64,000 bases of DNA, from contig CM069164.1 in assembly GCA_035221665.1 (NCBI GenBank), forward strand, positions 19,840,001-19,904,000, given 5' to 3'. Below the pieces are notes generated by a model. The model was given only the letters and a program-made list of their open reading frames with translations, had not been told where the DNA came from and made no database searches. Below are positions 8,171 to 41,700 of this stretch, piece after piece (within the stretch, counting starts at the first letter, position 1; each line of letters begins with the position of its first letter). This DNA comes from Okamejei kenojei. Its lineage: Eukaryota. The translations under genes were made by a program, and so were the position numbers.

Positions 8171-8223
8171 CATTTATTTCACTTGGTCCCCATTAACAAC
8201 CTGGTGGGATGATGGGGTGTCTT

Positions 8224-9035: not shown

Positions 9036-9401
9036 AGAAGTATATCTTCAATCCTTCATCGTCAGCAGGTATTTTGGACTTTCCTTCTCAAGAACATTTG
9101 GGATTACTTTCACCAGAAAAAAAGTTCAGCATCACCTTCTCAAAGACAATTAGAGATAGGCAATAAATTCTGGTCTTGGGCGTGATGCCCAGATCTGAAA
9201 AATAATCCTCAAAAAGTCGGTGTTGTTGACATAAAATGGCAATAAAGCTATACGTGGAGGAGTTATTGTCAGAGTGCCAAAATATTAATTCCACTGGAAC
9301 ACCACAAACATTGGCAAAAATAAGGTATTACAGGCTAGACTCATTGTGTTCTATAATTATAATATAACAACGTAGAAAACAATAACATAGCATAATTGTT
9401 T

Positions 9402-9567
9402 AAGAAAGAACTGCAGATGCTGGAAAAATCAACGGTAGATAAAAATGCTGGAGAAACTCAGCGGTTGAGGCAGCATCTATGGAGCGAAGGAATAGGCGAC
9501 GTTTCGGCTCTGAAACGTTGCCTATTCCTTCGCTCCATAGATGTTGCCTCAACTGCTGAGTTTCTCC
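9402..9567. mobile_element. Fold-back Penelope-derived short element with TSD
   Basis: Inverted arms centred ~9508; flanking direct repeat AACATAGCATAATTGTTT at 9384-9401 and 9568-9585. Confidence 0.85.
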
Positions 9568-10809: not shown

Positions 10810-10900
10810 CTGGGCACGTTTCGGTGCCTGGAAGGCGGAGTGTGTAGCACGCATGCGCGCTCCGGGCGCCTGACGTCACGAGCTGCTGGCAGTGTCATGG
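10810..10900 (+). promoter_or_regulatory. MINDY2: MINDY2 proximal promoter: NRF1-like ACGCATGCGC (10849-10858) and palindromic CRE TGACGTCA (10871-10878) at the start of a CpG island extending to ~11640
   Basis: Motifs seen directly, about 150-180 nt upstream of the ATG. Confidence 0.6.
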
Positions 10901-10938
10901 CGGCTGCCTGTCAGCGGCTGGAAGCTTCTTCCATGTAA
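10897..10938 (+). other. Candidate uORF MAAACQRLEASSM* in the MINDY2 leader
   Basis: GTCATGG strong Kozak context; stops 92 nt before the main ATG; depends on TSS position. Confidence 0.4.
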
Positions 10939-11030
10939 ACACCTCGACGTTTCCTCCTCTCCTCTCCTCTCCCTCCCTCTTCCCTCCCTTTCCCCCCACC
11001 CACACACACACACTCCCCGCTTGAAGGCAC

Positions 11031-11789
11031 ATGGAAAGTAATGTCAGTGTCGAGCGGGGCGGCGTGGCCGTGGAGTTGGCCGGGGCTGGGCCGGCTGTGG
11101 CGAGTGGCGATGGCAGCTTCGAGCGGCGGAAGGGATCGGACAGAGGTGGCTTGTGCCCGAGGGCCGGGGAGGCGGATAGAGGGGCCGGGGATGCTGCAGG
11201 TGGCGATCCTCCGTGTTCCAGCTCCGTGACATGCCTGCAAGAGGATGGAGGTGCGGTGGAGGTGGAGGGCGCGCCTACTGGGGAGGAGAAAGTCAACAAC
11301 GGCCCCCAACACAACTTGGTAAACAAGATGGGCGAACTGAGTGAGGAGTCTGCGAGCGGGCCGGGGAAGGACCTTCTGCCCGGCCTTGCTCAGCAGCAAG
11401 CGGATAATATGCTGCCGGAAGAAAGTAGCCCGAGTAAAAACCACGAGAGTGACAGGAATCACAGCGCCAGCGATCAAAGCATGCCTGGCGAATCGCGAAG
11501 CATCGACTCCCTCGAGTCCTTTTCCAATTTGAACTCTTGTCCTAGCTCTGACTTGAACAGCGAGGGGACTGAAGACCGAGCTTTGGCTCTCGCTTTACAG
11601 AGTGAAGAGTATAACTGCAAGGACGGTGGTGCCAAACCATCTGGTTCGAAAGAAAGATTCCTTGGGCAGTCAGTTTATCACATTAAGTGGATCAAATGGA
11701 AAACGGAGAACACACCTATTATTACGCAGAATGAAAATGGTCCCTGTCCTCTGCTTGCAATCATGAACGTTCTTCTTTTGGCATGGAAG
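11031..11789 (+). CDS. MINDY2: MINDY2 exon 1: disordered N-terminus and catalytic Cys ([22 protein letters not shown])
   Basis: ORF track; donor AAG|GTATAA. Confidence 0.93.
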
Positions 11790-17700: not shown

Positions 17701-20700
17701 TGTCTGTAAAAAGGTCATTCCTGTGTTATAGACTGCTCAACTTATGATGACCCCAAATTACAAACACTCCCATAATGTTATTAAATTTAAAAGTCTGACT
17801 CCAAAGAATGGCAGAATTATTTTCCTATCTTTCTCAACCTTTAGTAATCATTCTTCCTTATCAGTCTTATGTGCTTTTGATGTTATTGGTTTTAATATAG
17901 TGGAGGCATAGTTACCATATCAAGTGACGTTTAAATATTTTCCAACATAAGGACAAAATTTACTTTAAAAACAGAACCCTTTCATTAACTGGGGATGCTC
18001 TATATTTTATGGTTAGGGATTAAAACATTTTTAAAATGTACTTGTCAGAATTTTCAGATGAAAACCAGCAACTTCCATGATATACTCCTGTAAATCATCC
18101 AATATTTATTGTAATATATAGCATCAATGTACAAATAACCTGCTGAAGTACACAATAAATTAAATGGCTGTTAAAAAATTAGGCTTTTAAATGTTGTCAT
18201 CTCCCTCTCCAGTTTAGTATTTTATAGTCATAAAGGTGCTATTTCATTTTATTTAGTGTCGCCACCTCAAATCAACAAACACACTCCAATTAAGTAAACT
18301 TTAATCTGACAAACAGAGAATCAGTGTCAAGTTGCATGAGGCAGGTATTATTAAATCTTGGGAACACTCCACAAATTGCACCGCAGGGATTGTTTCCAAT
18401 ACCCTGTTCATTGTTTAATCACAGTTTCCAATTACCAAAACAGGCCTGCAGGTTGTTTTGTCCATCAAATAGCAACAAATTAAAAGTAAATTGAATTCTT
18501 CAACATATACATTTTGCACTTTCAATGGAATAATGTTACTTAATGTCCACGTCAAATTATAATATTTTGATGTTATCAGCTGAGTAACTATCAAATAGAT
18601 TTCACTCACACTATTGTCTAACACCCCCATCACATGTCAGCAGTTTCATGAAGGGTCCTTTTGGTTCATTCTCTGCCTTCAATTAATTAATGATCAATGC
18701 ACGCATGAATACCGATAGTAAACTTCTGAACCTTGAATTATAAGCTAGATGGGTTGTTGGAAAGTCTGGTTAGACAATCAACTTGTTAGAATACCACAGT
18801 AAATAAATGATATTATTTGTAATCCCAAATAGTTCCGTTCGTCATTCACTGATTCTCCCTTTTAGTTATTAGTACAGTTTAAACAAGTTGACTATTAGAG
18901 TTGTTCAGGTTTCTTTTTGCTTGCATTTAGCTTAGAGCTGTAGTGAAATATTGCAATTTTATACTTCTGTTCAAGGAAGATATAAAATAAACTTTGCAAT
19001 AAGCTAACAATTTACATTGGTCATGTTTCTTCATAGACTAAGATACTTTTGACGGAGATTAATTCTGAAAAGTATTAAATTGCTACGGTGATATTGGTAC
19101 ACAATGTGATGATTTTGTGTGTTACTCCAGCCTTTTTACTTCATGGCACTATTCATTTTGTGATCAATCTGGTTGTTCATTATTGATGTTGGTGTAAATT
19201 ATTGAAAAAAATGTTTAATTTAATAATTATAGGTGGGCATGTTTAAGTGTATGGAACCTAATTTAAGAAAAAATTGAAGTGGTTATTAATGAGCATTGAC
19301 GATCCTGAGAATATTTTTTTTACTTAATTCACAGGTGATTATATTCTTGATGCAAAACCAAAAGAAATCACAGATGCTCAGAGGCTGAACTATGAGCAGG
19401 TACTAATCTGTTAACTATATGTGTTTGGTGGATGGAGCCCTAAAGGAAAAGGATAGCAAGTAATGTTAATGCACATAATTCTGTAATATTTTTCATGCAT
19501 TTCAAAAATGCCCCAAAAGGAACAAGATTCATAAAGTTTTTATTCACCAAATTGTTTGGCCAATTTTGATATGATTTCACAGAAATCATAGCCAACATAT
19601 TAGTTTTGATTTGGACATATTGAGTTATTACTTTCAGGTTAGCATGTTTAGTGCATTCAGTTCACAATAAATACGAGGAATTTCATTTGCCAAGTCAGTC
19701 ATACAAATAAAAAAGCAACGGAACACACAAAATACATTTTAACATAAACATAATAATGATCATAGCATAATCACTTTCAGCTCATACAAGGTATTATAAT
19801 ATCTATGTCTTGGCTAAGTTGTCAGGAAAGACAACTTATGTATGGACAATATTGATGAGCTGTTGGCAATTAGTTTACATTCTTTAACTTATAGCCTATT
19901 TATCCGTTAGAAGTGGAAATTTAAGCACTAATTCATTTCACTACACTTTTTATTTAAATGTTATGAAGTTCCTTCAGTTTCTTGTCTAGTGATGAACTTC
20001 ACAACTACAAACTGATTGTAAATATATTTTTCTGCTCATCAAAGATTAAGCTCTAAGAGTAGTAACATGTAATAACAGTACATGTGGGTAAGAATGGCAC
20101 AATTTGGAATATGCATTACATGGAAGTTGACAAAGAAACCATACTCATATTTTCTTGCATTGCAGGACACCCTTTGGCCCCTTGAGTCAATGATAATTCC
20201 CATTCCTCCACATTTTTCCATAATCAATTCTCGCAGATACCCATCAACTCCCCTCTACCTACCACCCCATACTTCAAATCTTCCACCAGAGCAGATTATC
20301 TACAGCAGAGGTAATTTATTGCAGCCAATTAATTGCCAGCTGGAGGAAGATGTTAGTGGAATACTACAGAATCACAGAAGGCACCTTCCAAGATAACAAC
20401 TTAATGAAGCAAAAGCCATCAAACGAGCAAATAAATTTGAAGGAAGAGCAAATCCAATGTGCAGATATTTTGTAGTAGTCAATTCCACATCTATCCATCT
20501 AAGTTTAGTGTCAAAGTTGTATGCATTTATTTATGTATCATAGTGCTTCCAAATTCCCATCTGTAAATTATGGACCGTGGATGAGAGTGGGATAAAACTT
20601 GGCTTGTAGATCTTTGGCAGTTAAACAACTAAATGACATTTAAGTTTGTGATAAATGGTTGTCCGGGCAATATTCCAATTTCAGTATCCACATTGAACAA

Positions 20701-23700
20701 AGTTTCACAGATTTTGCAGTTGACTGGATTTATTTACGGATTTTATGTTGCTGATAAATCTTGAGGTAATCCTATTCTTTTTCTGAAACAGAACATGAGC
20801 GATGCAATGGCTATATTACACAAGCTGCAGACAGGATTGGATGTAAATGTAAAGTTTACTGGTGTAAGAGTATTTGAATATACACCTGAGTGCATTGTAT
20901 TTGACCTGCTTGATATTGCACTTTACCACGGATGGTTGGTGGACCCTCAGGTGAGAATACATTGGAGAGTGGTAATTTAAAAGTTGGTTGACATAAACTA
21001 CAATATTTCTTTAAATTCATTTAATGTGCTGTTGCGACTACCCACTTTCTTTCTCTCTTACCCCCCAAACACCCCCCCCCCCGGCCACATGGTTTCTGTT
21101 TGCTTCAGCCTGTGGAGTGGGCAGTGTGAGAACTCAAAGTAACCTTCATCATGTAAAAATAAAGCCCGATACAGTAAGTTAAGTCTTATTCTTCATGCCT
21201 CATCGACGAATATCTGTAGTCGAGCAAGTTACCTTGACAGAGAGCCAATTTGAGATGCATGATGAAATAGGTGTAATCTGAAACAGATTAACTTGAATTG
21301 TTAGGGAATCCATGACCCACTGCCAATTTTGTAATTGAAAGTCACTTTGCTTGTTCTTAATAGACACTTTTTTAGTAGAAGTGTCCAACATTTTGCATTC
21401 ATGAAAGAACCCATGTAGACAGTAGAACTATGGGATGCCAACTCGATAGTAAGATTACAATTGAGGCAGGTGAGGAATTTTGCACTTAAATTTGCATAAA
21501 TTGTTAGCTGAGGAAATAAGAAAACTACTTCATGATCTTTAAAATGAAGTTTCACTGATGTTTTGATGAATTAAACGTCTTGAACTGCAGTTTAATTCAG
21601 ATTAATTGTGTCAATGCCTCAGGGCACATAATAGTCAGATTGAAAGATATAATAGGTATCATTTTGTTTTTAATTTGAAATGTGATTCTTGCTGTGGATT
21701 ACATGCAAAGCTGATAATTTGGATAGTCATGAGAAATGTAGTTAGTTGTGCAAGAATTATTTTTATCCAAAATGTAAGTATTGTTTCTACAACAAGTATT
21801 TGAAAATACTTACTTTTGTTAGCAGCAAGGAAACAGACTGAAAGCAGGACTTCAATATTAGACATCTCCCAAACATCACAATTGGCACACCTCAGTGAGT
21901 ATAGAAACAAGATTTAGAAGTTGAATGCCAAAAAAGACGGGACAAAAGAGAGCTTCAAATTCTTGCGGAAATGGCACCCAATCAGGGGAGGTCAAATCTA
22001 CAAGCTGAATGGGTTGTACTTTAACGGAACTAGAACCAATATTCTTGTAGGGAGTTAAGTGCTACTAAGAGGTTTAAATGTAGTTGGCAGGATATTGGAA
22101 CTTTGAGTAGTTTATGAAGGAAAGGTAGTTTAGTTAAAAGAAAGATAGAAAGGATTAAAGCAATATAGAAATGCAATAAGGACGTTTGGCAATGACTAAT
22201 TGAATGCCCTTCAATTTAAGTAGTATAAAATGGACCAAAGGTATGTATCTGTGGATAAATTATATTTTAGCTTTACTGTTATGTGGCTTGAAGGGCAGGA
22301 GGTGCAATTGAACATTATTGATTATTTGGTTCAGAAAGGACAAGAGGATAGTAATAAAGACAAGAAGAGTTGAGAGGAATTGTTGAAACACAGTTGAAAC
22401 AAGGGTTGATGTACTGAACAAGTAACAAATGAGGACACTTGAAAACTGCCATTTGCCTTCAAACTATCATCTGCCCTGAAACGTGTGTGAATCCCTCCAG
22501 TTAACACTTAGGTGATCATCTTTAACAGGAGTAAACATCTGGGAAAAATGCCAGGTAAGGGACAGTACTTAAATAAAGTTAATTGTGCAGCTCTTTCAAT
22601 GAGCTTTCTGAAATAGTAGTTAGTGCTTGTGAGGGCCCTGTCCAGATTGGTGCAGTGTGCCTTGCCCTGGCATTGGGTGGGCTATGTGCATTGGGCAGAA
22701 AGCAGGATGAGAGTCAAGGTCTTAACTGAGTTTTCAGTTGCAACCTTGAAAGAGCTTCTTCCAGTCAGCAGGGTAAACTGACTGATCATTCCATTTATGA
22801 TGCTGTGGCTATCCAGGTGACTCTCATTTCTGCTCACATAACCAATTTGTATGTGGAGAAAATTGGTCCAATATTTATATTATGGTATGTGTAAAGTGTC
22901 ACAGAATGTGGCATCTTTGTTAGCCATAGGTCAGAAAGATGTAAAGTTTCTATTCTGAGACCCAAAGAGAGCAGGACACATAAAGGTGTAGAATATAGGA
23001 CTCGGAAAGTCATGCTAGGCAATTGGGCTATAGGTCAGGCACAGTTCTGGGCATCTGATTACAAGAAATATATATTTTCACCAAAGAAAGAGACGTTGTT
23101 GCTATGGCTGGGAAAGATGAGGAAAGTTAGGGGAGGTTGGAATTGTTTACTTTACAAAAGAAGCATTTTATCAAGGTATATAAAATAAAGAGGCCCAGAT
23201 GGGTTAAATTGGAAGCACCCATTTCCTTTGAAAGACCAGGCAATAGTTGGGGATCAGATACATGGTAATTCATAAAATAAAACAGGAATTTCTGGAAATA
23301 CTCAGCAGGTCACTCTGCATTTGTGGAAAAAGAAACAGACTTAACGTTTCAGGTTGAACGAGAGAAAAACTTGTTAAGCTCTGCGGGGAGTGGTGAGGGG
23401 TGATGCCCATAATAAGGTAAACCAAGATGAGCATGCTTTAAATGAGGCTAACTGGTCAGTGAGTGAATTGAGTATTTACAGTATGATAACACATACCCAA
23501 AAACATAGACGCTGTGAAATGCAGTGTGAGAGAATAGCCTGACAGGTAAGCTGGGTATGTCCCCCACTTCCAGAGGAGGAGGGGGGAAAAAAAAGAAAAG
23601 CTGAGCCAATATCATAGTTGGATGGCAGATGCCAACAGAAAAATCAAGATACCTGAAGTTGTAGAACGGATGATTCAGTCCAATGGGCTGCAGTGTGCCC

Positions 23701-26700
23701 GGACACAACAAAACGCTCCATTCTTCACACTCGCCTTGGTTCTCATTATAAAGGTTTGGGAGATCACGGGCTGATAAGGCAGTGAGATGAAGAACTGTTG
23801 TGGCAGACCTAATATATGCGTTCATTTCACAGAGCAGGACCAGTAATATGCCATTGAGATGCTTGCACTTGTTCTGCTGTACTTTTCTTAACAGCCCTCT
23901 ATATTCAGACATGGGAATTTTAGACGATTGGCCAGACTTTACACTGTAGTCAGTATAGTCATGGTATTTTCAGGTTCATGAAACTTTAGCTCCTTCAAGC
24001 ATTCTAAGATTACAAATTGTGTAAAATGAGGATATATAGCTTAGAAGTCTGTTGCAATTCTCAAATATAACTTTCTGCTGACAATTCTGTTTTGTAGAAT
24101 GCTGATCTAGCAAAAGCAGTGGGAATGTGCAGTTATAACCAGCTGGTGGAGAAGATTATCTTCTGTAAGCAGTCAGAGAAGAGTGAACTAGTCAGTGAAG
24201 GTAAGGGAAAAGAAAGTATTTTCAATAATAGCATGTACAAAGAAAGGAAACTGGAACATTGCTCATCAGCGGAGTAATGTCCACCAATTTCAAATGCAGT
24301 TTTATGCAGAACCTCTTTGAAGCAATATAATAATTGATAGTTAGCAAAGATGACTAAAAACAATGTAATGAAGGGATCTCCAAATCTGTAGGCCTGACAG
24401 TTACTAATCATTGTGGTGAAAATTAGCTTTGAGCAGCTGAGTAAATCTTGCTGCAGAGTAATTTGATGGTACATGATTTTTTTTTTTGTTTTAAAAATTT
24501 CCTCAGTGCCTTTATTTAAACAAAAAGGCACCGAGGGAATGTTATGAATGTAAGGGATTTTGTTGTAATGATTACCAAGTAAATAAAAGTTTTTGATGCA
24601 TTGTTTCTGAATCGCTTATTCTCTCTAATATCCTGAAGGTGGACAGGAATCAAACTATAACCTCTGTTTCAGCCTATAGCTCGTAATTGAGTTGGATGCC
24701 ATTTCTGAGGCCTTTTGGTCAACTAAACTAAATTGTCATTTGGATTTTGTGATGACTGGGCTGGGAGCTACATATGCTCATCAGTTGCCAAACATTAAGA
24801 GCACGCAGTGCCTTCCAGGTTACTTTCAGGTGCAATCTTCCAACAGATGACAGGTCCTAGTCTAATGATACTCTGTTCAGCACAGGGCCTCTCTGACTAT
24901 TTTGCTGGCCTTCCCTGTATTTCATGTTGCTGTATTGTCATAGGAAGCTGGACATCACAGGCTATTAGGCATGTTGCCAGCAATGAAAATAAGACATTTG
25001 GAGTTGGCCAGAGCTGGGTAGCTAGAAGCATTCGCGGAAGCAGTTGCTAAGGGCCAGGAGGCGGGAGGACGTTTGGAGAGGTCAGGGTTGAAGAACTAGG
25101 AGGTCAAGCTGTGGAGTATGATGAATACTGTGTGGAGGTGGTGTAGTGCTAGGAAGCTGAAAACTGGAGAGCCTGGGGAAGGGACAGTGACTTGCCTTTG
25201 CTCGCTTGACTGGAAGTTGGATTGAAACATTGCATTGAACCTTTGTGCCTCTTGTCATGTAACAGACCAGATGCGCTGATTCATGTTGATGCTGCCTGGA
25301 ATACTTGTAGCATGGGCCTTTTGTATACTGGGAGATAGATTGGCCTTTGAGCTCCATGGGAAGTTCAGCAGTGCAGCAGGATCCCAGTTTAATTCTGCAT
25401 CATGAGTTGGGAGATCAGTGGGCAGGCGTTTAAGCGGACCATCCTGTTGCAATTAGAGGCCATGTAGGCACAATTAAAATGGAAAGGTTTGCTCTTTCTC
25501 CATTGCTTTGAACAATGAGATTTAATATGTTACAAAATTATGCAAAAAGCTACAAAGTACAGTTTCTAAAAATAAAATATTTACAAGATTCCCGTGCCAT
25601 TGGAGATTTGCAGGCCAAATAGGTCTTGACATCTGATTTCTGATGAGTTTCTGATGTCAGCTGTGGGGCGAAGTGAATAAATGCTGAAGTTAGCTGTTTT
25701 CATACTAGCATGGCAAACGTACAGTGCCCTCAATAATGTTTCGGACAGAGACCGATCATTTATTTGTTTGCCTCTGTACTCCACAATTTGAGATTTGTAA
25801 TGGAAAAAGTCACATGTAGTTAAAGTGCACATTGTCAGATTTTAATATCGGCCATTTTTAAACATTTTGTTTTCACCATGTAGAAATTAAAGCAGTGTTT
25901 ATACAAAGTCCACCCCACCCCACAATTTCAGGGCACCATAATGTTTGGGACACAGCAATGTCATGTAAATGAAAGTAGTCATGTTTAGTATTTTGTTGCA
26001 TATCCTTTGCAAGCAATGACTGCTTGAAGTCAGCGATGCATGGACATCACTAGTTGTTGGGTGTCTTCTCTGGTGATGCTCTGCCAGACCTGTATCATGC
26101 TTATGCTTGTTTTGGAGGCTAGTCCCCTTCAATTTTCTCCACCATATAAAAGGCATGCTCAATTGGGTTCAGATCGGGTGATTGACTTGGCCACTCAAGA
26201 ATTGACCATTTTTTAGCTTTGAATACCTCTTTTGTTGCTTTAACAGTATGTTTGGGATCATCGCCTTGCTGTGGAATGTACTGCAGGCCGATGAGTTTTG
26301 AGGCATTTGTTTGAACTTGAGCAGATAGGATGTGTCTATACACTTCCGAATTCATCAGCAGTTGTATCATTAATGAAGTTAAGTAAGCCAGTACTTTCAG
26401 CAGCCATACATGCTCTGGCCATAACATCCCCACCGCCGTGTTTCACAGATGAGGTGGTATGCTTTGGATCTTGGGCAGTTCCTTCTCTCCTCCATACTTT
26501 GCTCTTGCCATCACTCTGATACAAGGTAATCTTCGTCTCAACTGTCCACAAGACCTTTTTCCAGAACTGTGGCTCTTTTAATTACTTCCTGGCAAACTAA
26601 CTTGGCCATCCTATTTTTGCAGCTAACCAGTGGTTTGCATCTTGCAGTGTAGCCTCTGTATTTCTGTTTGTGTAGTCTTCTGCGGACAGTGGGGTCATTG

Positions 26701-29700
26701 ACAAATCCACACCTGACTCCTGAAGAGTGTTTCTGATCTGTTGAACAGGTGTTTGGGGATTTTTCTTTATTATAGAGAGAATTCTTCTGTCATCAGCTGT
26801 TGAGGTCTTCCTTGGCCTGCCAGTCCCTTTGTGATTAGTAAGCTCACCAGTGCACTCTTCTTAATGATGTTCCAAACATAGTTGATTTTGGTAAGCCTAA
26901 GGTTTGGCTGGTGTCTCCAATAGTTTAATTTTTATTTCTCAGTCTCATAATGGCTTCTTTGACCTTCATTGGCACAACCTTGATCCTCATGTTGATAAAC
27001 AGCAATAAAAGTTTCCAAAGGTGATGGAAAGATTGGAGGAAAGAGTAGGTGCTGAGAGCTCTCTTATACCTGCATTAAGGAGGCAATTATTACACACCTA
27101 AGCAATTACAAACACCTGTGAAGCCATGTGTCCCAAACATTATGGTGCCCTGAAATGGGGGGGGGGACTGTGTATAAACACAGCTGTTATTTCTACATCA
27201 AAATGTATAAAAATACCGTTTAATAAAATCTGACAATGTGCACTTTAACCACATGTGATTTTTACTATTACAAATCTCAAATTGTGGAGTACAGAGGCAA
27301 ATAATTAAATGATGGGTCTTTGTCCCAAACATTAAGGAGGGCTCTGTAGCAATGAATTCAAACATTATATTTTTATACTGTTGTTCACGGATTGGTGCAG
27401 ATGTTGAATGAAAGAAGATTTGAAGGATGCAAATTATGAAAATAAACATCACAAGCAAGATAAACTGATGTATTGGCTTCCACAATCAGGAGCACAGTTA
27501 TTATATTTAAATTGTTTCTATCATTTTGGGTTATCAGTGGGTGTAGAAGATACAATTGGCCTTCTGAGCTCAGAGTTCAGGAAAGAAGCAGGATGCCTGA
27601 TTATAATAGTGCATGGTGAGTTAGTAGATCAGCTGAGGGCTGTAGTTGTCTTTTTGTAATTGTTATGAACGCATGATATTGTGAACTATATATACATTGT
27701 ACCCTACTTTGCAAGGATCCTTCATGTATAAAGAAAAATTAGTTCACGCTTTGCAATAATGCTTCTGGCTGAAGTGATCTGACATTTATTATGCTACAAC
27801 TGTAGTATTTGACACATTGGAAACCATTCCCTAATTTATTGTGATCTATATGTATTATAACAATTATATGTAATATAACAATTAAGCTGTTTATTTTTTG
27901 TATATGGCTTTGGATGAAGTGTTAAAGTTTAATATTTATCGTGAATTATCTTCATATTGTCAAAGTTAACAAAGTAAAAGCATATTTTTGGTAGAAATCT
28001 AGATCATAGTTTTAATGGTAAGCGCAGATCTGTGTCATCCCTATTGCTTCAATTCCAAGCTATAAATGTGTTTGTAATGAGTTTCTGATTAGTGTTTATA
28101 TTTGGCTGCAATAATCATAGCTTTTCTTTTCCTTCAGGTTATGTTGCAGAACAGTTTTTGAACAACTCAGCAACTCAGTTGACGTACCATGGGTTATGTG
28201 AACTGATTTCCACGGTTGAAGAAGGAGAACTGTGTGTGTTCTTCAGAAATAACCATTTTAGCACTATGACAAAATACAAGGTATTCTTTCATATTATCAA
28301 AGATTTAAGTTAAGAATCAGAACTGTGTACTCTAAATGGTGTCTAATGAAAGGACAAGAATTTACCAAATAAATTGCTTTTCATATACAATCACTGAGAG
28401 GGGTGGATAGAACACATGCATCCTGTTGATCCTTGTTGCAGAAAATATTTCTCATTAAAACGAGGTAAATGGACATTATTTCGTGTCAAATTGTAAATTT
28501 ACCTGGGAAATGAAGCTATACATAATCTAGTGGGCCAGAGGTAATCGAGGTAGTATTTCAGCATTAGTATATTCCAGTATGTATAAGAAGGAACTGAAGA
28601 AGAGTCTCGACCCGAAACGTCACCCATTCCTTCGCTCCAGAGATGCTGCCTGTCCCGCTGAGTTACTCCAGCTTTTTGTGTCTATCTTTAGTATATTCCA
28701 GGTCCAGAGTGCAGAAACGTGCCAAGACTGCCACGTCCAAGAACAATGAGGTGTTGATTGGGAAGCAGATCATTCCACCTCTTATCTTACTCGAGGATGC
28801 CACACGGTTCATCCTGTGAACTGAGATGCCCTCAGATTGCGGGAGGATGGTGTAGAAGGATGCAGTTCAAATGCAAACAAATGAGATTAGTGTAGCTGGC
28901 AAAAGGGTCCACATGGACCTGGTGAGATAAAGGGTTGATTTCTGTGCTCTTTGAGTCCATGAATAATAATAAAATACTTTTCAGGCATAATAGGTTTGAA
29001 CAGAATTGGCATGGATTTATGAAAGGAAAATTATGTTTGGATTTCTTTGAAAGTGTGACTGGTTAACAATTAATGGAGAAGCATTGAATTGAAGGAGATT
29101 TCTCGATATGCAGAAGGCTTGGAATAAGGTCCCATGGAGGAGATCAGTCAATAAGGTTAGATTAAAATTGGGAGTTGCCAATGGCAACTGAGCAGGGATC
29201 AATGCCTGTGCCCCAGCTTTTCATGACCTATATCAACTGGTGATTTGGCTGAGGTGAAGAAACGTAATATTTCCAATTTGGTTATTATACCAATCTCATG
29301 GGGATTGTGAGCATCAAAGTGGATGTGAATTGGCTTCAAAAGGCTATGGTCAAGCTAAAATGGGTGGGCAAGAAACATGGTGGATGCTATTATATTCCAC
29401 TTTGGTATGAAATGGTGACGTTGAATAACTTTGAGGTTCAAAGAGCTCTATGTGTCCTTCTACACAACTCATTGAAAGTCAACTTATAGGTGCTATTGAT
29501 GATGATCTTAGTAGATTGATGTGAACACAAATCTTCACAATGGAAAAGGAGCGAGCTGATAGAAAATGTTTCTGAATGTATATTTCGATTTCCAATGAAA
29601 GTGATGCCTTATTGTCGCTTTTGATAGTTGGTAATGATATATCTGATAGAAAGAATAATTTCTTAAATATATGAATGAATAGGTTTATTGGCCAAGTATT

Positions 29701-32700
29701 CAAATACAAGGAATTTGCCTTGGTGCTCTGCCCACGTGACAACATGACATTCAGTGACAGTTAAGAATGATACATTAAACAATAATAATAAAACATTATT
29801 GATTAAACATGTGAATTAAGTAAAATACCAGAGCAAAAGGAGGCTACAGATTTTTGGTTATTGAGTGGAGCTACTGCTCGTGGAAATAATCTGTTTTTAT
29901 GTCTGGCTGTGGCAGCTTTGACAGTCCGGAGTCGCCTTCCAGAGCGAAGTGAGTCAAAGAGTTTGTGGCCAGGGTGAGAGGGGTCAGAGATGATCTTACC
30001 CGCTCGCTTCCTGGCCCTTGCAGTGTACAGTTCGTCAATGTCGGGAAGGTTGCAGCCAATAACCTTCTCAGCTGATCGAACGATTCACTGCAGCCTCCGG
30101 ATGTCGTGCTTGGTGGCTGAGCCAAACCAGACCATGATGGAGAAGGTGAGAACAGACTCTACGATGGCCGTGTAAAATTGGACCATCATTGCCTGTGGCA
30201 GATTGTGATTCCTCAACTGCTGCAGGAAGTACATCCTCTGTTGTGCCGTTTTGACTGTGGAGTCGATGGTAGCCCCCCACTTAAGGTTCTTGGAGATGAT
30301 GGTTCTCAGGAACTTAAAAGACTCCACAGATATGACTGTGGTGTTGTTGAAGGTGAGTGGGGGGAGGGAAGGGGGAGCCCTCCTAAAGTCTACAATCAAT
30401 TCCGCTGTCTTAGGAGCATTGAGCTCCAGGTTGTTGCGATGGCACCAAGACGTCAGCTGTGACCCTTCCTGTCTGTAGGCAGATTCCTCCCCATCCTGGA
30501 TCAGTCCAATCAGGGATGTGTCGTCCGCAAACTTGAGAGGCTTGACAGAAGAGTCTGTGGAGGTGCAGTCGTTGGTGTAGAGAGTGTAGAGGAGAGGGGA
30601 GAGTATGCAGCCTTGCGGTGCTCCTATGCTGAGGGTTTGCGGGTCCAAGATGTGCTTTCCCAGCCTCACATGCTGCTTCCTGTCTGTCAGGAAACTGGTA
30701 ATCCACCGAAAGAGGGGTTCAGTCAACTCGGAAAATTTGGAGTGTAGTAGCTCTGGCACAATGGTGTTGAATGCAGAGCTAAAATCAACAAACAAAATCC
30801 TCGCATAGGTCATAATCTTCACATAAATATATAGCATGTCAACTCTTGACAGTTTTGTATAATGTCACATCGGTAGCTGACACTACGTTTGGCATAATTT
30901 GCGATGTGATGCGAGTTGTCCTGCTAAAATCCTTCTTTATCCCAATCTTCCAATGGATTTGACTGATGAGAGTAGCCAGTTTCCTTCCAGACTTGCACAT
31001 GAAACTGTGGATCAGCCCTATAGAACTTTAAAAGCATACCAACACTTAAAACTATGAAGAAACCTGTAGTCGGTAGAGCAGCCTCTGCAGACAACTGCTG
31101 GAATTAGTTGTGATGGTTACTTAATGGAGAGCTTGGGAATATTAAACCTGAGAGCCATTGGCGTTGTTCTGCTGGTTCAACAATGAGTGATTGAGCTTGT
31201 CACTCTGTTCTTCAAAGCTTGCTGTTCAATTGGTTTGTTAATAAAGTAGTTTAATACAACAAATAGTAAAGGAAGCTTAATTTGAATTAATTACATTTGA
31301 ATGGAGAGAACATAACAGCACTGAAATTTTGGTACAATTTACAGCACTAAATTACAATGGAATTTTAAATGTGGGGTTGCTAGAATATTTCCTTGGGTTT
31401 GCCACAGTATAAATTATTTTTTGTGGAAAAAGGAATTAAAAAGTGCATAAACTGGCCATTTTCATTCATAGAACCTGTAGACAATGTTTTGTCATTTGTA
31501 TCTCGCACACCTATTTAGTTTCTTGCCTTGTGCTCTTATTTTGTTTCTCTCCTCTTGTTCTTACAATCTCTTGCTTTCATTACATGCAAATCTCTTGCAC
31601 TTGAATCATCTAAATAGAGAGAATTTTTGGATGAGCAAGTACAGAGGTGTTCTCATCAAGGGTACACAAAAGGCTGGAGAAAGTCAGCGGGTGCAGCAGC
31701 ATCTAAGGAGCGAAGGAGATAGGCGACGTTCAGGTCGAGACCCTTCTTCAATAGCTGAAGAAGGGTCTCGACCCGAAACGTCGCCTATCTCCTTCCTCCT
31801 TAGATGCTGCTGCACGCGCTGAGTTTCTCCAGCCTTTTGTGTACCCTCGATTCTCCAGCATCTGCGGTTCCTTCTTTAACACGGTGTTCTCATCAAGGTG
31901 TTCTTGTGCTTGAATCGTAAATTGTTAGCAGGTAGTTGAGAAGGCAAATGACACACTGGTCTTTATTGCAAGAGGTTTGGAGTTTAGACAAGGGGAAGTA
32001 TTGGTACAGTTGTGAACGGTACTGGTGAGACCACAGTTTTGACCCCCTGTTTTTAAGAAAGGGTATACTGGCATTGGCAGCAGTCCAAAATGATTTCACT
32101 GGGCTAATTCTTCAGATGAAATGGCTGTTCTTTCATAACCAGCTGCAAAATATTGAATTTTATTATTTGGAATTTAGAAGAATAAAGAGTAATATTATGA
32201 AAACATATGGAGACATTGTTACAGGATTGACATAGTTACAGGATTATGAAATTTGATTTAAAACAGAGTTGTATAACAGCTTCTCTCAGGGAATGGTGAA
32301 GTTCTGAAATTGTGAAGGTATTTAAAGAGGAAGTAACTAATTTTTTTGAAAGGTAAGGGAACTGATGGGTGTGGAGAATTTTCTGAGGAGGAGATGGAGA
32401 CCTAAGGCAGGTCAACCATAATCACATTGAATGTAGGGGAAGACTTGAGGGGCCGTCTATCCTACCTCTCTTGTTTTCTTATGTGCTGCCTTTGTCTGCT
32501 GCGTGTCTCCATCCATGAGGTTTGTGTACTTGCCACTTACACCATTGCTGTCAGGTCAATTACTGAGGATAAATTCGTGTAGGTTTCTCAATTAGTGTTA
32601 TTTTTGCATCACCTGCTGCACACTGTTTTAGTGACCGTTTATATTTTTGAACTCTCTCGGTACACTCAATGATACTGCAGCTGAGTCACTGTGGATGAAG

Positions 32701-35700
32701 GGTATTGAGGTCTCCACTTTGTGTACATTCCTGCTCTTGTTGTCTTTGGTCCTTCCAGGTGTTGCTTTTCAGCACTAGCTTAAAGGGTTTGAAAATGGAA
32801 AGGAAATTAGAGCTGAAACCAATCCTCGCCACACTCAGGCATTTACCAGCAAGTTTGAATGTGGCTGATACTCAGAATTGATTCAATTTTTCCTACCGAC
32901 AACCATATTCCTAGATCCCTAGGATCCCTATAGAATATTTTAAAAATTGATGCTAGGACTGACTATAACTGTTACTGGGCTGGATAGTCCTCTGTGTCTA
33001 GATTTTGAGATTTAATTACATTTTTGCTCATCCGAATCCATAATAGTTTACCCGATGTCCTGAGATTATACATCCGATTCCTGGCTTGAGGAGAACACAT
33101 CTCGACACACACCAGATCTGTCTCTTAAAATATCTGTACATTTCTGTAGGGTAATCTTAATTTCCAGAGAAGCCAATCTTAGGAACAAATCCAAATGCAG
33201 GTGCCAAAAATCTTAAAATAAAAACAGAAAATGCTGGGAAAAGTCAGCGTCGGACAGTATCTGTGAAAAAAGAATGGCATTTTAACTCTTTCTCCACAGA
33301 TATTACCAGATCTGTTGAATATTTCCAGAACTTTCTATTTTCATTTTACCGTTTCAGCATCTGCGGTTTTCTGATTATTGAAATTTTCCACTCCTGTACC
33401 TTTGTGCCTTCATGTTATCTTTCTGCATTTCATGATAGTATATTAAGATCTATATTTGATTAAACATAGGAGGCCGGTTTGGCTCTACTCTCTGATGGCT
33501 CAGAGTAATCTTATCTCCCCTGCTAATTCACCCCACATTCCCATCATCTCTGTCCAGATTCCACCATGCACCAAAACTATGGGCAATTTATAATGGCCAA
33601 GTATGACCTGATATCATTCATATTTCTGAGAAGTGTGAGGAAACGGGAACAACCACAGAAACCCACAGTGTAATCGGGAGAACATGTAAACTTCATGCAG
33701 ACAGCACTGGAGGGCACCACTGAATCCTGGTCTCGGGGCTGTGAGATCATAGATCTACAAGCCGCTCAAATCCTCTTTGACAATGTCATTACTTGTCCTG
33801 ACCATGGAAAATATTTTTCTGTTTTTCTGTTTTTCGTACCAGAATGATTAACTTTGACTTTTCACATGTTTCATTTCATTTGCCATTGTCATAAATCCTC
33901 ACTTAATTTCTCCACATTTGCTCGTATCATCTTATTAATCATGACTTTGTATTATAAGCGGATGTTCATTATTCATCTTAGTTCCTGTAATAGGTTGCAA
34001 ATAGCCAAGAGCCTTGTGGCATCCCACCATAACAGCTTACTAGTTCATAAGAGGTCATTATTCTTAACTTTTTCCTAATCCTTTAACCAACACTGTCCAG
34101 CTTAATGCACGTTATTATGCCACCTGCTTTGCATAGTGGCATATTGGATAGTGCTGCCACCTCAGTTTTAGTGGCTTGGGTTTGATCCGAATTCCAGGTG
34201 CTGTCCGCATGGAGGTTGTAAGTTCTCCTTGTAATTGCATGGGTTTCCTCCAGGTCCTTCAGATACTCTGGTCTCCTTTTATAGGAAAATAGGTGCAGCA
34301 CCACCATTCAATAAGATCATGGCTGATCATCTAAAACCAGTACCCCGTTCCTGTTTTTTCCCAAAATCCCTTGATTCCTTTAGCCCGAAGAGCTAAATCT
34401 AACTCTCACATTCCAAAGTCATGTTGGTTGATGGATAGTGGGGCAATTTACAGTTGCCAATGAGTGCATAGGTGGATGGCACTAGTAGAATGGGTGAGAG
34501 TTGAGGTTTGTAAGAAAGAGGACATGTTACTAGGATGTAAGTGGAGGAATAGGATAGATGAAATAGTACTGAGATCTTGCATAGATTTGATAGGATAAAT
34601 GGCCTCCTGTGTCGTGAGAAATATGAATGGTATTATTCACTAGGAGCAGTTCCAGCAGCTAATGCATTTGAAATATCAATATTAATTCATTTGCCATTTC
34701 TGCGGCCACCTCTTCTGGAAACAAATTGTCAAAAGCCAGGAGATATATTTTTAAAATCCCAGTTTCTTCAGTACTTCAGTCATTTGAAATTCATCCTTTT
34801 TTATTAATCTCTCGATTCCCAATTATTTCTACAAGTTTTTGTTTTCCAGGATGAGAACATGTAAAATATATTTATCCAAAGTCTCACTTTTATTTATTCC
34901 TCTCATTCATTTTTTTACCCCTTGCCTCTATGTGAACTATTTTTACATAGATATGGAAGCTCCAACAATCCTATACTATATTATTGATCTGCTCTCATAT
35001 TCTGCTGCCTTGGTCTTTATTTTTTTTTGGTCCCCAGTTGCTTGTTCCTGAAATATCATTTCCTCAGGCTTATAATTTACTAATGTTTTAAGCCTCTAAT
35101 GTTTTTTTAAAACTCTTTAGTTAGCCACAGATACATTATTTTTCCCTGTTCACTTTATTTTTCAGCGAAAGGAACATCTGCAAATTATGAAACACTCCCA
35201 TAGGTGTTTGTTTGCCTGCAGGGAAACTTTTCAATCTGATGTTCCTATAACTTTAAAATAATTTACACAAGTGTAAGGAGGGAATTACTCAAAGGTCAAA
35301 ACTCTAGTTTGTAACTGAATGGAATATTGACTGTGTTTTCTCTAGTAAATTCCTCATTATAAGATTAGGAATTAACCCTGTCCCCATGCAATATTAAACT
35401 CTGATAATCCGTGATCCGATTATTCAGAAATCCTGATCGTGTGGAATCTGGCTCGCAGGGAAATGTTTCCGCAACTTCCTTTCATCTCATCAGGTCCACC
35501 TTTCATCAACTCCCATTAAACCTACTGGGTTCACTGGAAAACATATTGTGATACCAGGATAGGAAGGAATTGCAGATGCTGGTTTACACCGAAGATAAGA
35601 CACCAAAGGGTCTCAACCCAAAACGCCACCCATTGCTTCTCTCCAGAGATGCTTCCTGTCCCGCTGAGTTACTCCAGCATTTTGTGCCTATCTTTTGTGT

Positions 35701-38700
35701 TACTCTGCAACATGTATAGAAAATAAATGAATTATATGCTAGTTGGAGTAATAGTCAATAGTCTGCAAAAAATGCCAACCAAACACTACCGAATCCCTGC
35801 GTGCTCCATTAATGGAATTTTACTGCTTGAATTGTTGTATGTTATTGTCTGGATATCAAATAAAACAATACTGGAAGTAGTCAGCAGGTCAAGCAGCATT
35901 TTGTGGGGAGAGGAACAAAGTCAATGTTTTATTTTATTAGTCGACGTCATACTTAGAAAGTAGTACTCCTACCTCTCAATTCCAACAACCCACATTTGGT
36001 CCCTTGGTGCGGTCTGAGTGGAGTGTGCTTGTTCTCCCTGCAAGTGTTTGGGTTTCCCCCTGAATCATCTTGTTTCCTCTCGCATCCCAGCGATACGCTG
36101 TTTGATTGGCTATCTTGCATTGCCCATAGTATTGGTGGGTGGGAGGAGAACTGGGGTGGAGCTGATGGGCAGGTGAGAGAAGCCAAATTGCATGGAAATG
36201 GTGAAATTGATTATTCTGAGAACTGGTGTAGATTCATTGGGCTGAAATAACTACCTTTATTGTAAGAAAATGGAATCAACGAAGTTAATGCCCCTGCATC
36301 ATAACTAGAATATAAAGTAACCATATAACCATATAACAATTACAGCACGGAAACAGGCCCTCTCGGCCCTTCCAGTCCGTGCCGACCATTTATTTTCCCC
36401 TAGTCCCATCTACCTGCACTCAGACCATACCCCTCCTTTCCCTCTGGGTCGGTGAGCAGGGAAAAGTTTAAACAGGCAATCAGAAGCACTAAAAAGTGCC
36501 ACGAAGTATCCCATGCGACTAAGATTAAGGAGAAATGCAAGGCATTTTATGCATACATTAAAATCAAGAGGGTCACTAGGGAGAGGATAAGGCCCACCCG
36601 AGGACAAAGGAAGGAATTTATACCTGGAGCTGAAGGAAAAGGCTGAGAAAGTAAATGAGTACTTCATATCAGTATTCACCAAGGAGAATAACATCGAGTA
36701 TAGTGGCATCTTGGAGGGGAATGTTATTCCTCTATAACAGGGGTTCTCAACCAGGGGGGAATCCCCCCCAGGGGGGGATTTCAGGTTATCAGGGGGGGAA
36801 TTGGGACCACAGATTAGCAAACTCAAACTGTTAGAATGTTGATCTTTTTATTGCCTTTGCATATTATTTGGAATGCACTTTTTGAGGCAGACAATCTTGG
36901 AAAGGAGGGAGGAATGACATTCTGACATATGGTGAAAGGGGTGCATGGGGCAAACAAGGTTGAGAACCACTGCTCTGTAAGAAGAGGTGTTGGGTCTCTT
37001 GTGGAGCATAACAGGCCCTTAGTCCCACAACATGTGTGCTGAATGTGAAGCCAAGACACTCTCATCCACCTGCATACAATCCACACACCCCATTCTCTGC
37101 ACATCCATATGCCTATCCAAAAGTGTCTTAAATGCCACTATTATATCTGCCTCAACCACCAACTCCATGATGGAGCGGTGTGTTTCAGTCTGGAAGTATG
37201 TGACCAGTGGTGTTCTGCAAGAATCAGTGCTAACCTCTTGCTTGGTATATAAATGTTTTGGATGAAAATATAGATGGGCTGATTAAGTTTGCAAATGACA
37301 CAAAACTTGGCAGAGTTGCAGAAGAAGGTTGTCAAAATGTGCAGCAGGATATAGAACAGTTGGAAATATGGGTGGATGGAGTTTAATTAGGCCAAGTATG
37401 AGGTCTAGTATTGGGGCGGATTAAATGTAAACATTTAGGAGCTTTAATGTATGGAGATCTTGGGATGCAAGCCCACAGTTGCCTGAAAGCGGCAACATGA
37501 GTGGATAGGGTGGCAAAGAAGGCGTATGGCATGCTTGCTGCCTTTGGTCAGGATATTGAATATAAAAGTTGGGAAATATCCTTTGGAGAATATGCAGAAA
37601 AGGTTTACCAGGATGTTTCCTGAATTAGAGAATATCAGCTGCAAGGAAAGGCCGGGGAAATTTAGATTGTTTTCTCTCAAGTCAGAGACTGATCGGCAAC
37701 TTGATGGAACTGTTTAAAGTTGAGAGGCATAAATAGGGTGTATAATTTTTTTCCCAGAGTGGAAGTGTCAAATACCAGAACACACAGCTTTAGGGTAAAG
37801 AAGATGTATTTTGCAGAGTAGCCAGTGCCTAGAATGTACTGCCAGTGGATGTTTAGTTTAGTGATATAGCACAGAAACAGTTCCTTCGGCCCACCGAGTC
37901 TGCACCGACCAGTGTTCCCCGCACATTAACACTACCTGACTCACACTAGGGACAATTTACACTTATTCCAAGCCAATTTACCAACAAACCTGTACGTCTT
38001 TGGAGTGTGGGCGGAAACCGAAGATCTCAGAGAAACCCACGCGGTCATGGGGAGAATGTACAAACTCCGTGCAGACAGCACCCGTAATCAGGATTGAACC
38101 CAGGTCTCCGGCGCTGTAGGGCAGCAACTCTTCATTGTTGTGCCACCGTGCCAGATGTGGTGGAAGCAAACATGATAGCAATGTTTGAGAGGCACTTAGA
38201 CGGGCACCAGTCGACAGGGAATGAAGGAATATTGAATGCGTGCTCAATATTTTGTGGTTAATATTCTTTACAATGTTATGGTATTAGGAGTTGCACAGTG
38301 GCACAGCTGGTGAAGCTGCTGCCTCATGGCACCAGAGACCGGGATTTGATCTTGACATTGGGTGCTGTCTGTGTGAAGTTTGCACATTCTCCCTGTGTCC
38401 GCGTGGACTTACTTGCTATTCATTCAGGCCCAGATCACCTCTCTGGTCATTGTTATTATCAAATCATTTTTGGATGTGTTTTCCAAATCTGGGAATATTT
38501 TTTGCATTCGCTGTAATTATTCTTGTAATTCGCTTATCCAACATGTTAATGATAGAAAATGGGTTAAGATACAGTCAGAATTACAAATTAGAGATTTGGC
38601 CTTGAACTTTCCCCGTCAATGTATTTCTACTTGAACTGTTCTCTACTCCAAACTTTCCAGAACACAGATATGATCTGTCAGAAATCTAAGGTAAGAATCA

Positions 38701-41700
38701 CTGGTCATACCACATGTTTAACTAAGTCTTGCAATCTATCTTGTGTGGAGAGACTTCATTGTTCAAAAGATTTTGATGTATGTGCTTTTCTTGTTGGTAA
38801 GACTTAGGCAGTGTATAATCAAATAATCTCAACAGTTTAGCATTAAGGGAATGTTAAGGGCATATTTAAAATGCTATCTGTGATCTAATGTTAAATTACA
38901 GCTTTTTCTGTCTGCCTAGGAGGAAGTAAAAGATCCCATGCTGTTGTTTAAAGATCAGTGAGTTTTCATGGTGGCCTTGCTAACATTTGTCCGTAAATTA
39001 ACCACGATAAACAGATGTTCTAGATTTTTTTATCTATCCTGTTTGTGTAACCTATACTCCACTTACTTCCGTCAGTATCATAAATAAGTGACTGCATTTC
39101 TTTTGAAAACTAACCCATAGGTGGTAAAATGCTAGCCTGCTTCACTTGCTTCTCATCAAATGCTTTATTAGGTTTAACAGTTACAGGTTTTCCATTAGTT
39201 CTATTTTCATTAGTTCTATTTGCATGCCTGTGTCTGTTGTTTATTTCTTGATCAAAGTTTACAAGTTTCTGCACCAGTGCTTTGCAAATTGTTTTTTTTT
39301 AAATAATTCTTGTTCTGCATAGAATTATTAATTTATATAATCGATTAGACTTTATGGCCGATTAAGTCTATGCTTGAATAGATCAGATATAATTAATGAA
39401 AATCCCCAAAACAGCATATGCTGGAAAACTCAAATAAAAACAGAAAATGCTGAAATAGTTTAGTTTATTGTCCTGTGCATCAAGGTACAGTGAAAATCTG
39501 TTTTGGTTGTGTGCTATCCTGTCCGCAGAAATTTTACATGATTACAATCAAGCTGCCCACAGTGTACAGGTATAGGATAAAGCCAATAATGTTTAGTGCA
39601 AGCCCAGTAAAGTCCAATCAAAGATAGTCCGAGAGTTTCCAATGAGGTTGATGGTAGCTCAGGACTGCTCTCTGGTTGGTGATAGGATGGTTCAGTTGTC
39701 TGACAACAGCTGGGAAAATACTGTCCCTGAATCTGGAGGTGTGCGTTTTCACACTCCTGTACCTCTTGCCTGATGGGAGAGGGAAAAGGAGCGAGTTTCT
39801 GGCGTGAGACTCGTCCTTGATTATGCTGGTGGCCTTGCCGAGGAGTCAATAAACAATCGGCAGCACAAGCAGCATCTGTGGCAGGAGAAACAATTTAACA
39901 TTTCAGATCGCATCTCTTCATCAGACTTAATAGCATAACTGAGGAAGCAAAAATAACAGATCAAATGAAGAGACCGAGACCTGAAACTTCAATTATTATT
40001 TCATCTGTTCCAGATGCTGTCTGACATGCTGAGTCTTTTCCAGCCTTTTCTGTTAAAAATATAATCACATTTCTTTCCTTTTCCCCCATTTTTCTATGGC
40101 TTTCACTGCTTCAATGTTTTATCAGCTCTTTATTTGCTAATATATGGGTCTGCCTCAGCTACTCCAAATGACAAACGGGGACGATGATTAAACACCTCTA
40201 AATTAAAATTATCCTTGATTTTTATTTTGTTTGTACGCTACACAACACTAACCTCAGCAAATGTGAACTTCGATGAATTGTATTTGGTTGATCTAAGAAC
40301 TTCACGTATTATGGTTATTAATTTATTGCATGTTTAACAATTCTAGTATATTATCTTTGTGTATTGTGTTTATGGGCTTGTTAAGATTAGTTTAGTTTAG
40401 AGGTAGACCGCGGAAACAGGCGCTTCGGCCCACCGAGTCCCCGCCGACTAACACTGTCCTACACGCACTAGGGACAATTTAATAATAATAATTGAATTTA
40501 ATAATAATAATTTCATTGTTCTGTTGTCAGTACATCTGACAACGAAACACTCCCATGACTCTTGTCTTGACTTGCTGTTACACCAACAACAATTCCCAGC
40601 CAAAGCAAATAGTCTTTACCATTTCTTCTATAAAAAAAATTCTCCATGACGTAATCACTAAACTTCATTTTAGCCCTTTTCGTTGCAAGAATATTTTAAG
40701 TATCTTAGAATGTTCTTCATAGTACAACAGGTTTATCAACATTCAGAGTGAAAGAGACAGATTAACCTTTGAGACAGAATGTGGTAGAACTGAAAGATGA
40801 AGTATTTCAATAGAAAATTTAAAAAAAGGGGCTGTTGCAAATTCATTGGATTTATTACACATTTATAATAACATTAAATGATCTTACACTAACTCTGAAT
40901 CTTTAGAATGACTTGGAATTATATTATTTGCCTCTTTTTTTAGCTTTCAAAATTTTGCTAAAATACTGTATTTTTGGTCTACATTTTCAGTAAGAGCATA
41001 ATAAATATCCCAAATAATATCTATTTTTCCTAATTGCATTTGTTGACCCTCTCTCACATCCTTTTTAATTTTAGATCCAATATTTGCATACTTTGTGTGT
41101 CTTTATATATCATTAAAAGCTGGAAATGCTTTGGGTTTAGTTATGTTTAACTTAACAACAAATGGTTCAATAGGTCCACAAAAGCTAAAGCCATATCTTC
41201 AATTCCATCTGTTCAGAAATTCAGATAAATCTGTTGTCCAGTTGTTTTCAGAGAAGAGTTTACCTATTGGAACGAAGAACATTGGAGCGTCAAAGTTTTT
41301 AAAATTTATAGTGGATGCAACCAAATTGCACTGGCCAAGCACACAAGTGAAATTACAATTGCAGGTTTCTGCTAAATGGTAACCTTGCGGTGACAATCTA
41401 TTGAGAGTAAGCCAAATACAACGAGTGTTTCCTTGTTTGAACTTTTTAATCGGCTGACATTTTGCCAATCTGATCAGTGCAAATAGCATTCACTCCTGTG
41501 GATTAAAATGTTGTTGTTTATGTTGAATAGCAGTCTGGCAGACTGCACCATATGGCAATTTAATCTTCGGTAGGCCATAAAAAAACAGATCTTTAGCAGG
41601 ATGTTAGTGTTTTCTGCGGGTTTGCAGTTCTGGTGATTGGTATTACCTTTTTTATGAGTAGTGCCAGTTTATTTTCTGTTTTGGGCATAGCCGCTGAGCA

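Follow-up and report, generated by a model that had tools for sequence, protein, structure and literature searches.

Insertions of endonuclease-containing (EN+) Penelope-like elements (PLEs), as described for Adineta Pen2a_Av (PMC3846280), in PMC8557442 and for the Drosophila virilis element with its 34-bp repeat (PMC2377424), typically combine an inverted, 5'-truncated arm, a tail of 30-40 bp on one side only and a target-site duplication (TSD), and have parents organized as partial tandems. The tail has been described in PMC8557442 and PMC11167929. Metazoan PLEs also carry minimal hammerhead ribozymes, which have been reported, among others, in Neptune PLEs of fishes (PMC4209133); the published examples cleave weakly as dimers (PMC4209133; PMC6765202), and the hammerhead of an Anolis PLE cuts only with the protein (PMC11167929). 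For the same Anolis element, the PLE protein is reported to nick and extend both strands using uncut RNA as the template, with reverse transcription beginning at two internal sites, one at either boundary of the tail (PMC11167929). Animal non-LTR retrozymes (bioRxiv 10.64898/2026.07.22.740005; see also PMC7229834) are likewise non-coding, hammerhead-bearing and related to the PLE pseudo-LTR (pLTR), and are described as tandem arrays of whole units.

Within the window (the whole stretch of 64,000 nucleotides of the skate Okamejei kenojei, contig CM069164.1), the insertion at 31646-31898 consists of the following parts:

31646..31661, plus strand: left TSD, 14 bp unambiguous plus 2 nt in common with the arm end
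31660..31750, minus strand: inverted arm, a 5'-truncated pLTR end that stops at the short 3' end, with no tail
31751..31754, plus strand: non-native spacer of 4 nt where the two heads meet, occupying the place of the native 5' strand of helix I
31755..31879, plus strand: direct arm, the pLTR 3' end of a young Neptune-type PLE subfamily, reaching the long 3' end
31755..31782, plus strand: minimal type I hammerhead core (C3-A9, bulged A, 4-bp helix II, GAAAC/GUC palindrome), helix I absent
31847..31879, plus strand: the 33-nt PLE tail, on the direct arm only
31883..31898, plus strand: right TSD, a 16-nt exact repeat of the stretch at 31646

The inverted arm, which has a core of its own lacking C3 and one A of GAAA, aligns with the intact element L156 (from position 2154) with one gap and few mismatches, and the direct arm is identical to L156:2153-2278 in 122 of 126 columns; this right arm is 96-97% identical to the pLTR end of the intact element (96.1% over 129 nt for L156). 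Almost certainly, then, the unit represents two head-to-head, 5'-truncated end pieces of an intact Neptune-type PLE. It resembles the published EN+ units in its inverted 5'-truncated arm, one-sided tail (33 nt compared with 30-40 bp), TSD and partial-tandem parent (PMC3846280, PMC8557442, PMC2377424), and differs from them in that about half of the young skate insertions are ORF-less and share one narrow start point, and in the size of the family, with some 10^6 arms in 4.4% of the sampled DNA. The RNA of the unit is predicted to form one long hairpin (-186.3 kcal/mol, z -21.7), and this fold-back hides the hammerhead core, which is predicted to be a passenger that is likely unable to cut. Because it carries a known PLE-class motif in a likely non-cutting form, we judge the unit to be ordinary: it is a product of a known class, and its layout, tail, TSD and motif are all already in print.

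The core that the earlier note had read at 31755-31782 (CTGAAGA-A-GGGT-CTCG-ACCC-GAAAC-GTC) stands, and so does its identification as a PLE-type minimal type I hammerhead. The catalytic positions fit the published motif, and the family shares with the metazoan minimal hammerheads (PMC4209133) the common core, the bulge after A9, G10.1-C11.1, the palindromic 15.2-16.2, the location in the pLTR and the prevalence of solitary copies on truncated PLEs. The pairing of stem I that had been claimed did not hold up. The copy at 31755, presented as the best one, forms 0 stem I pairs, since ATAG at the fold-back junction takes the place of the AGT that natively precedes the core, and neither of the two pairings cited from other copies is native: in the 6661-6700 example, ACAGGT sits inside an inverted arm (6593-6668, minus strand) and the core is broken (CTGCAGA, GCC), and in the 49553-49579 example most of stem II has been deleted, the triplet reads ATC and the outer G is foreign to the native sequence. 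Across the family, helix I comprises 2 bp, with position 2.3-1.3 paired in only 13% of 124 copies; among 27 matches to a minimal-hammerhead descriptor, helix I has 2 bp in 17 and 3-4 bp in 3, so the published length of 4-5 bp is not reached. A helix I of 2 bp agrees only with the 2-bp variant of D. virilis Penelope; in Schistosoma, helix I has 4-5 bp and helix II 7-8 bp (PMC4209133), compared with 2 bp and 4 bp in the skate family, which moreover has one nearly invariant core in contrast to the many variants described in that paper.

The 119 full copies that were clustered fall into subfamilies that are 5-14% diverged from their own consensus. In clusters of at least 12 copies, the 28-mer varies only in loop II, with N1.1 being A or G, either of which pairs with U2.1. 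For a spurious motif, the earlier note had anticipated core positions no more conserved than the flanks; we found the non-CpG core columns to be conserved at 0.94, compared with 0.81 and 0.88 downstream (p 0.0035), although the profile alignment may inflate this difference. Judged by its sequence, the hammerhead motif is genuine and under selection in the master elements, in which its activity may require the help of a protein or dimer formation. A hand-built dimer model reaches -12.7 kcal/mol, compared with -19.7 for the predicted dimer minimum, so that a stable active dimer is unsupported. In the predicted fold of L156:2150-2284, the tail end pairs with the CUGAAGA box region over 10 bp and the tail pairs with the middle of the arm over 8-9 bp, at a z of only -1.5; such pairings might turn the hammerhead off or serve to mark the sites at which RT starts.

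The alternative that survives best is that in this PLE family the motif does not act as a ribozyme and owes its conservation to a role as a promoter or a protein-binding site. An Rfam search of the window, one of the checks proposed in the earlier note, yielded no hammerhead family at E values up to 10, and the proposed covariation analysis found none of 11 pairs to exceed shuffles in 129 copies, the stems being invariant between subfamilies; these results, the 2-bp helix I and the predicted fold of the parental 5' RNA that ties the CUGAAGA box to the tail end speak for this alternative. Against it, the published PLE motif is matched at every catalytic position, at the bulge, at G10.1-C11.1 and at the 15.2-16.2 palindrome; changes between clusters are confined to loop II and to the pairing-neutral N1.1; the core shows excess conservation; and a 2-bp helix I is reported for D. 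virilis Penelope (PMC4209133). We consider this alternative unlikely. The 14 matches that Rfam did return in the window are sub-threshold miRNA, plastid 3'UTR and snoRNA models, of which the miRNA ones fall on fold-back hairpins, and they were rejected.

The family is abundant. The window contains 37 arms by one profile and 41 by another, and all 15 positions listed in the earlier note, where the element was said to recur more than 15 times, overlap profile matches; most copies are decayed, as was also stated there. Three features summarize this population:

5392..62928, both strands: span of the 41 family arms, with head-to-head pairs near 6665, 9512, 33280, 39940, 44610, 45735 and 46044
8233..9040, plus strand: an older, longer copy in which the family arm, at 8952-9036, is preceded by the GIY-YIG C-terminal part of the PLE ORF
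62510..62719, minus strand: a copy in which the PLE 3' UTR remains joined to the upstream side of the arm, 76% identical to L156 over 213 nt

The copy at 8233..9040 shows 74-76% identity to the PLE ORF in a tblastn search (E 1e-77) and a Pfam GIY-YIG match that is below the cut-off (E 4e-4). The 90-nt stretch at 16902-16991 (minus strand), which matches the young PLE's endonuclease region at 98.9% identity and has no adjoining pLTR arm, is by this comparison an isolated internal piece of that element. In the genome (2.76 Gb searched, 1141 contigs), the exact 28-nt core occurs 48,215 times (control, 0), to be compared with about 4,000 descriptor matches in coelacanth and about 9,000 in Xenopus (PMC4209133). 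Sixty 10-kb stretches taken elsewhere at round coordinates (600 kb) contain 295 arms in a profile search, with 0 on the reversed sequence; given the comparable arm count, the window is typical of the genome. These arms occupy 26,195 bp, or 4.4% of the sample, and extrapolate to a total of about 1.36 million arms, most of them without an ORF. The minimal-hammerhead descriptor mentioned above found its 27 matches in the same 600 kb, compared with 0, 0, 1, 0 and 0 in five shuffles, and 2 in the window. Neighboring arms among the 295 form 54 head-to-head pairs and 16 tandem ones.

The lead to the parent was a match in which the arm was preceded by the terminal part of a PLE ORF. When loci were collected with the endonuclease C-terminus, 22 of 25 had a plus-strand arm downstream, mostly 420-470 nt beyond the match. 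A search with an RT fragment produced 150 scored matches, including open frames of up to 1197 aa, and inspection of 20 ORF-bearing regions identified two intact elements, L156 and L157, each with a pLTR arm, the ORF and a second pLTR arm. L156 is a partial tandem with an 898-nt direct repeat whose copies are 99.8% identical. The two elements are 98.1% identical over 4453 nt, which indicates that the family was recently active. The 1185-aa protein of L156 contains DKG at 591, YIDD at 832, a CX4CXXC linker at aa 1052 and IYCI..YIGET at 1090-1106; its Pfam matches to RVT_1 (E 5e-6) and GIY-YIG (E 3e-4) both fall short of the curated cut-offs, and comparison with NCBIfam and PDB sequences gave no match. 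Within the ORF (L156:2315-5872), a Pro/Ser/His-rich low-complexity segment of about 270 aa lies between the N-terminal helical region and the RT and accounts for the length of the protein compared with the approximately 840-aa ORFs of Adineta PLEs. A CX2-5CxxC zinc finger in the linker that separates RT from EN is described in PMC8557442 as absent in Penelope and Poseidon. The linker zinc finger of the skate PLE, which sets it with Neptune and not with Poseidon, points to Neptune, an assignment made by motif rather than by an RT tree, with Nematis as a possible alternative. MER6/V-SINE, an initial lead, was set aside because the parent turned out to be a PLE. Two further loci, L161 and L175, are kilobase-scale, ORF-bearing head-to-head inverted pairs with the same architecture as the small fold-backs.

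To characterize the 5' ends, 107 exact-core copies were examined (14 from the random stretches and 93 from the first 4.7 Mb of one contig), of which 57 passed the young-subfamily filter. Their 5' ends pile up next to the core: 30 lie 0-9 nt upstream of C3, one each at 31 and 100, and 25 at 242 or more, so that the parent's own upstream sequence continues for at least 31 nt in 27 of the 57. When copies were chosen by their 3' part only, starts fell between -9 and -2 in 11 of 20 and in 9 of 30 cases, in a set that may include a few long copies of a sister subfamily misread as -4. None of 50 young copies starts at the predicted cleavage product (+29), and four start at +32 to +35, 3-6 nt past the predicted cut. 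Upstream of the 48,215 exact cores in the genome, AGT is kept in 32,931, CAGT in 27,125 and GACCAGT in 15,530. The apparent 'TAG' 5' end of the 20 best matches of one search proved to be a ranking bias of the query; a query without the 5' part revealed the native upstream sequence. At the 5' edge, the site reads YCAGTCT, with YCAGT lying 1-4 nt upstream of C3, and presumably fits the initiator consensus.

A non-native G precedes AGT or GT in 10 of 13 young non-fold-back copies (about 30% expected, p 7e-4) and in 15 of the 22 young copies that lie outside the tandem set. At tandem junctions with a non-C base, G was found in 25 of 30 (hand count over the first 100 of 703 listed), and a script run on 30 loci returned 7 G, 2 A and 12 C. 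Genome-wide, the excess is modest, with G making up 37% of the non-C bases before AGT compared with 28% expected; the first 100 BGT matches have 40 G, 39 T and 21 C by hand count, A-to-G decay explains part of the signal, and the inverted arm or the TSD supplies the template for some of the G calls in fold-backs. Extra G residues from cap copying have been reported for L1 (PMC4038843), and we regard a copied cap as a suggestive explanation only. Given that RT runs toward the 5' end of the RNA and halts after passing the hammerhead, the pile-up suggests the end of the template rather than a structural stall. On balance we favor the view that the cDNA runs off the RNA at a capped start that lies just upstream of the core. 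Counting against this run-off model are the scatter of the starts over about 10 nt, the four copies that start near the cleavage site, and D. virilis Penelope, which has its start site about 120 nt upstream and a splice acceptor that maps to helix I (PMC2377424, PMC4209133).

The fixed 5' edge could instead be a splice acceptor or another processing site, the copies deriving from spliced or processed RNA. Every subfamily has a pyrimidine-rich tract and YAG before U2.1, and the 3' end of the D. virilis Penelope intron maps to helix I (PMC4209133). Nevertheless, 32 short copies share no common upstream exon, with none matching the pLTR beyond chance; no GT..AG joint occurs among the 15 joints listed of the 15 + 39 in four contig runs; and the starts range from -4 to -1 instead of being fixed at AG|T. 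This origin of the edge thus appears improbable. Assembled contigs of sequencing runs have loose ends at L156 2149/2150 (114 + 38 and 125 + 48 contigs); being contigs, and in at least one run probably derived from DNA, they do not inform on starts or expression. Contigs of the family pLTR, one of them with a small fold-back, are also present in two metatranscriptome libraries (X6 and X8), probably as host carry-over.

The 3' ends of the young copies are bimodal (+57 to +70 and +95 to +105 past the core), and the approximately 33-36 nt between the two end points correspond to the PLE tail. One short and one long 3' end are combined in 28 of 29 fold-back rows, the exception (L242) being an artefact of the search window that disappears when the locus is read from the other strand; a further row (L223), which is no true unit, was dropped. 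The same holds for all 22 independent fold-backs that remain after removal of both-strand and duplicated-flank rows, and for 10 of 10 loci in a set unselected on ends. The TSD is mostly 10-16 bp long in 57 calls (14-16 bp in the unit at 31646-31898). The junctions of the fold-backs differ from copy to copy, which implies de novo formation of the hairpin at each insertion. The 5'-complete arm is the short one in six fold-backs and the long one in three. That either arm can be 5'-complete argues against snap-back and for two separately primed cDNAs.

Snap-back self-priming of a single cDNA, or an antisense template, followed by endonuclease resolution that leaves a one-sided tail, has precedents: snap-back was proposed for Adineta PLEs on the basis of palindromes at inverted junctions (PMC3846280), the tail has been ascribed to endonuclease resolution (PMC8557442), and many of the skate junctions use microhomology in the quasi-palindromic core. 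However, in the six fold-backs with a tailless 5'-complete arm and a tailed truncated partner, the tail of the partner cannot be a copy of that arm, so that self-copying of a single cDNA cannot yield them (the other three show the reverse arrangement). We therefore disfavor this route and give it little credence.

The reading that we prefer, with a probability of about 0.85, is that the fold-backs are 5'-truncated PLE end pieces joined head to head within a TSD, likely in one event, by two-site priming on uncut RNA. In this scheme, the PLE protein would prime two cDNAs on uncut RNA in one insertion event, one starting at each of two fixed sites, the tail boundaries, and both would run to or near the capped 5' end of the RNA at the edge of the hammerhead. 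The initiator-like YCAGT that lies 1-4 nt upstream of C3 would be the transcription start; copies primed in the 5' pLTR would be run-off products of about 95-130 nt, those primed in the 3' pLTR would be the long copies, and the extra G would be the cap copied into cDNA. The observed part of this model is carried by the identity with the parental pLTR end, the tail, the TSD, the rule of one short and one long end, and the pile-up of 5' ends. The Anolis Poseidon element PAc shares with this model of the skate PLE the two internal RT start sites bounding the tail, the uncut RNA template and, in the data described in PMC11167929, the lack of ends at the cleavage site. The two differ in that the PAc ORF starts inside helix II and includes the tail, whereas the first ATG of L156 is 162 nt downstream of C3 and the tail lies upstream of it.

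The genome also contains 703 short head-to-tail core duplications (control, 1) with cores 0-15 nt apart. Those at 30 of the loci (L296-L325) have two cores side by side and represent natural cis-dimers. At the inspected loci, the first copy often begins at AGT or GT and ends 0-13 nt past the cut site; these positions are consistent with a possible template jump after run-off. A more extended version of the two-site priming model, which we put forward as tentative and rather doubtful, is that strong-stop-like cDNAs fill about 4% of the genome, that the cap lies 1-4 nt upstream of the core and that the protein, primed once at each tail boundary and having run off the cap with an extra G left behind, sometimes jumps to a second RNA just 3' of the cut site, where a hammerhead dimer would hold it. 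If true, the genomic stubs would map the transcription start, show twin priming on two RNAs and record the geometry of the hammerhead dimer in vivo.

The weakest alternative, an independent non-autonomous retrozyme with its own short hammerhead master, cleaved as a dimer, circularised and mobilised in trans, could draw on the extrapolated 1.36 million mostly ORF-less arms, on the 703 core duplications and on the report that animal retrozymes derive from PLE pLTRs, with one chondrichthyan among their hosts (bioRxiv 10.64898/2026.07.22.740005), but is very improbable, given that the short copies are parental sequence with no diagnostic changes seen and no master distinct from the autonomous element, every fold-back junction is different, 0 of 50 young copies start at the cut site, the duplications are partial (about 30-45 nt) and amount to about 1.5% of the core count, helix I has just 2 bp, head-to-head neighbors outnumber tandem ones 54 to 16, the tandem cases inspected being partial duplications, and parental upstream sequence extends for at least 31 nt in 27 of 57 young copies and for at least 242 nt in 25. 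Whereas retrozymes are tandem arrays of whole units, the skate arms are scattered, for the most part as solo or inverted copies, and are identical in sequence to the end of the autonomous element. Thus, of the proposal in the earlier note that these are non-autonomous, retrozyme-like elements mobilised by Penelope machinery, the involvement of Penelope machinery is retained and a separate retrozyme family is not, the arms being the terminal 95-130 nt or so of the autonomous element.

As a discovery of a ribozyme or retrozyme, this family offers little that is new, PLE hammerheads and inverted tailed insertions having been published. Its value is that of a test bed, in which an intact young element is accompanied by tens of thousands of near-identical insertions, and the skate PLE provides predictions on open points of PLE biology, namely the start of the RNA, the priming of both target strands and the purpose of the hammerhead. 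The end pieces of this single PLE family alone make up about 4% of the genome; the main text of a 2025 survey of shark and ray repeats contains neither PLE nor Neptune as a whole word. Our literature search retrieved no paper on start-site-bounded PLE stubs, on a cap G in PLEs or on this elasmobranch family, which may be listed in Repbase/Dfam or in the supplements of PMC4209133 and the preprint, all outside the scope of that search.

Among the other features of the window, the last part of an open frame at 11025-11792 (plus strand) matches the beginning of a MINDY deubiquitinase domain (Pfam PF04424, E 2e-14); by sequence, this gene is presumably MINDY2. The unit at 31646-31898 probably lies in an intron of this MINDY-domain gene. 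The window also contains a fragment of a LINE-type RT at 30088-30864 (minus strand) and a fragment of a Tc1-like transposase at 48302-48940 (plus strand).
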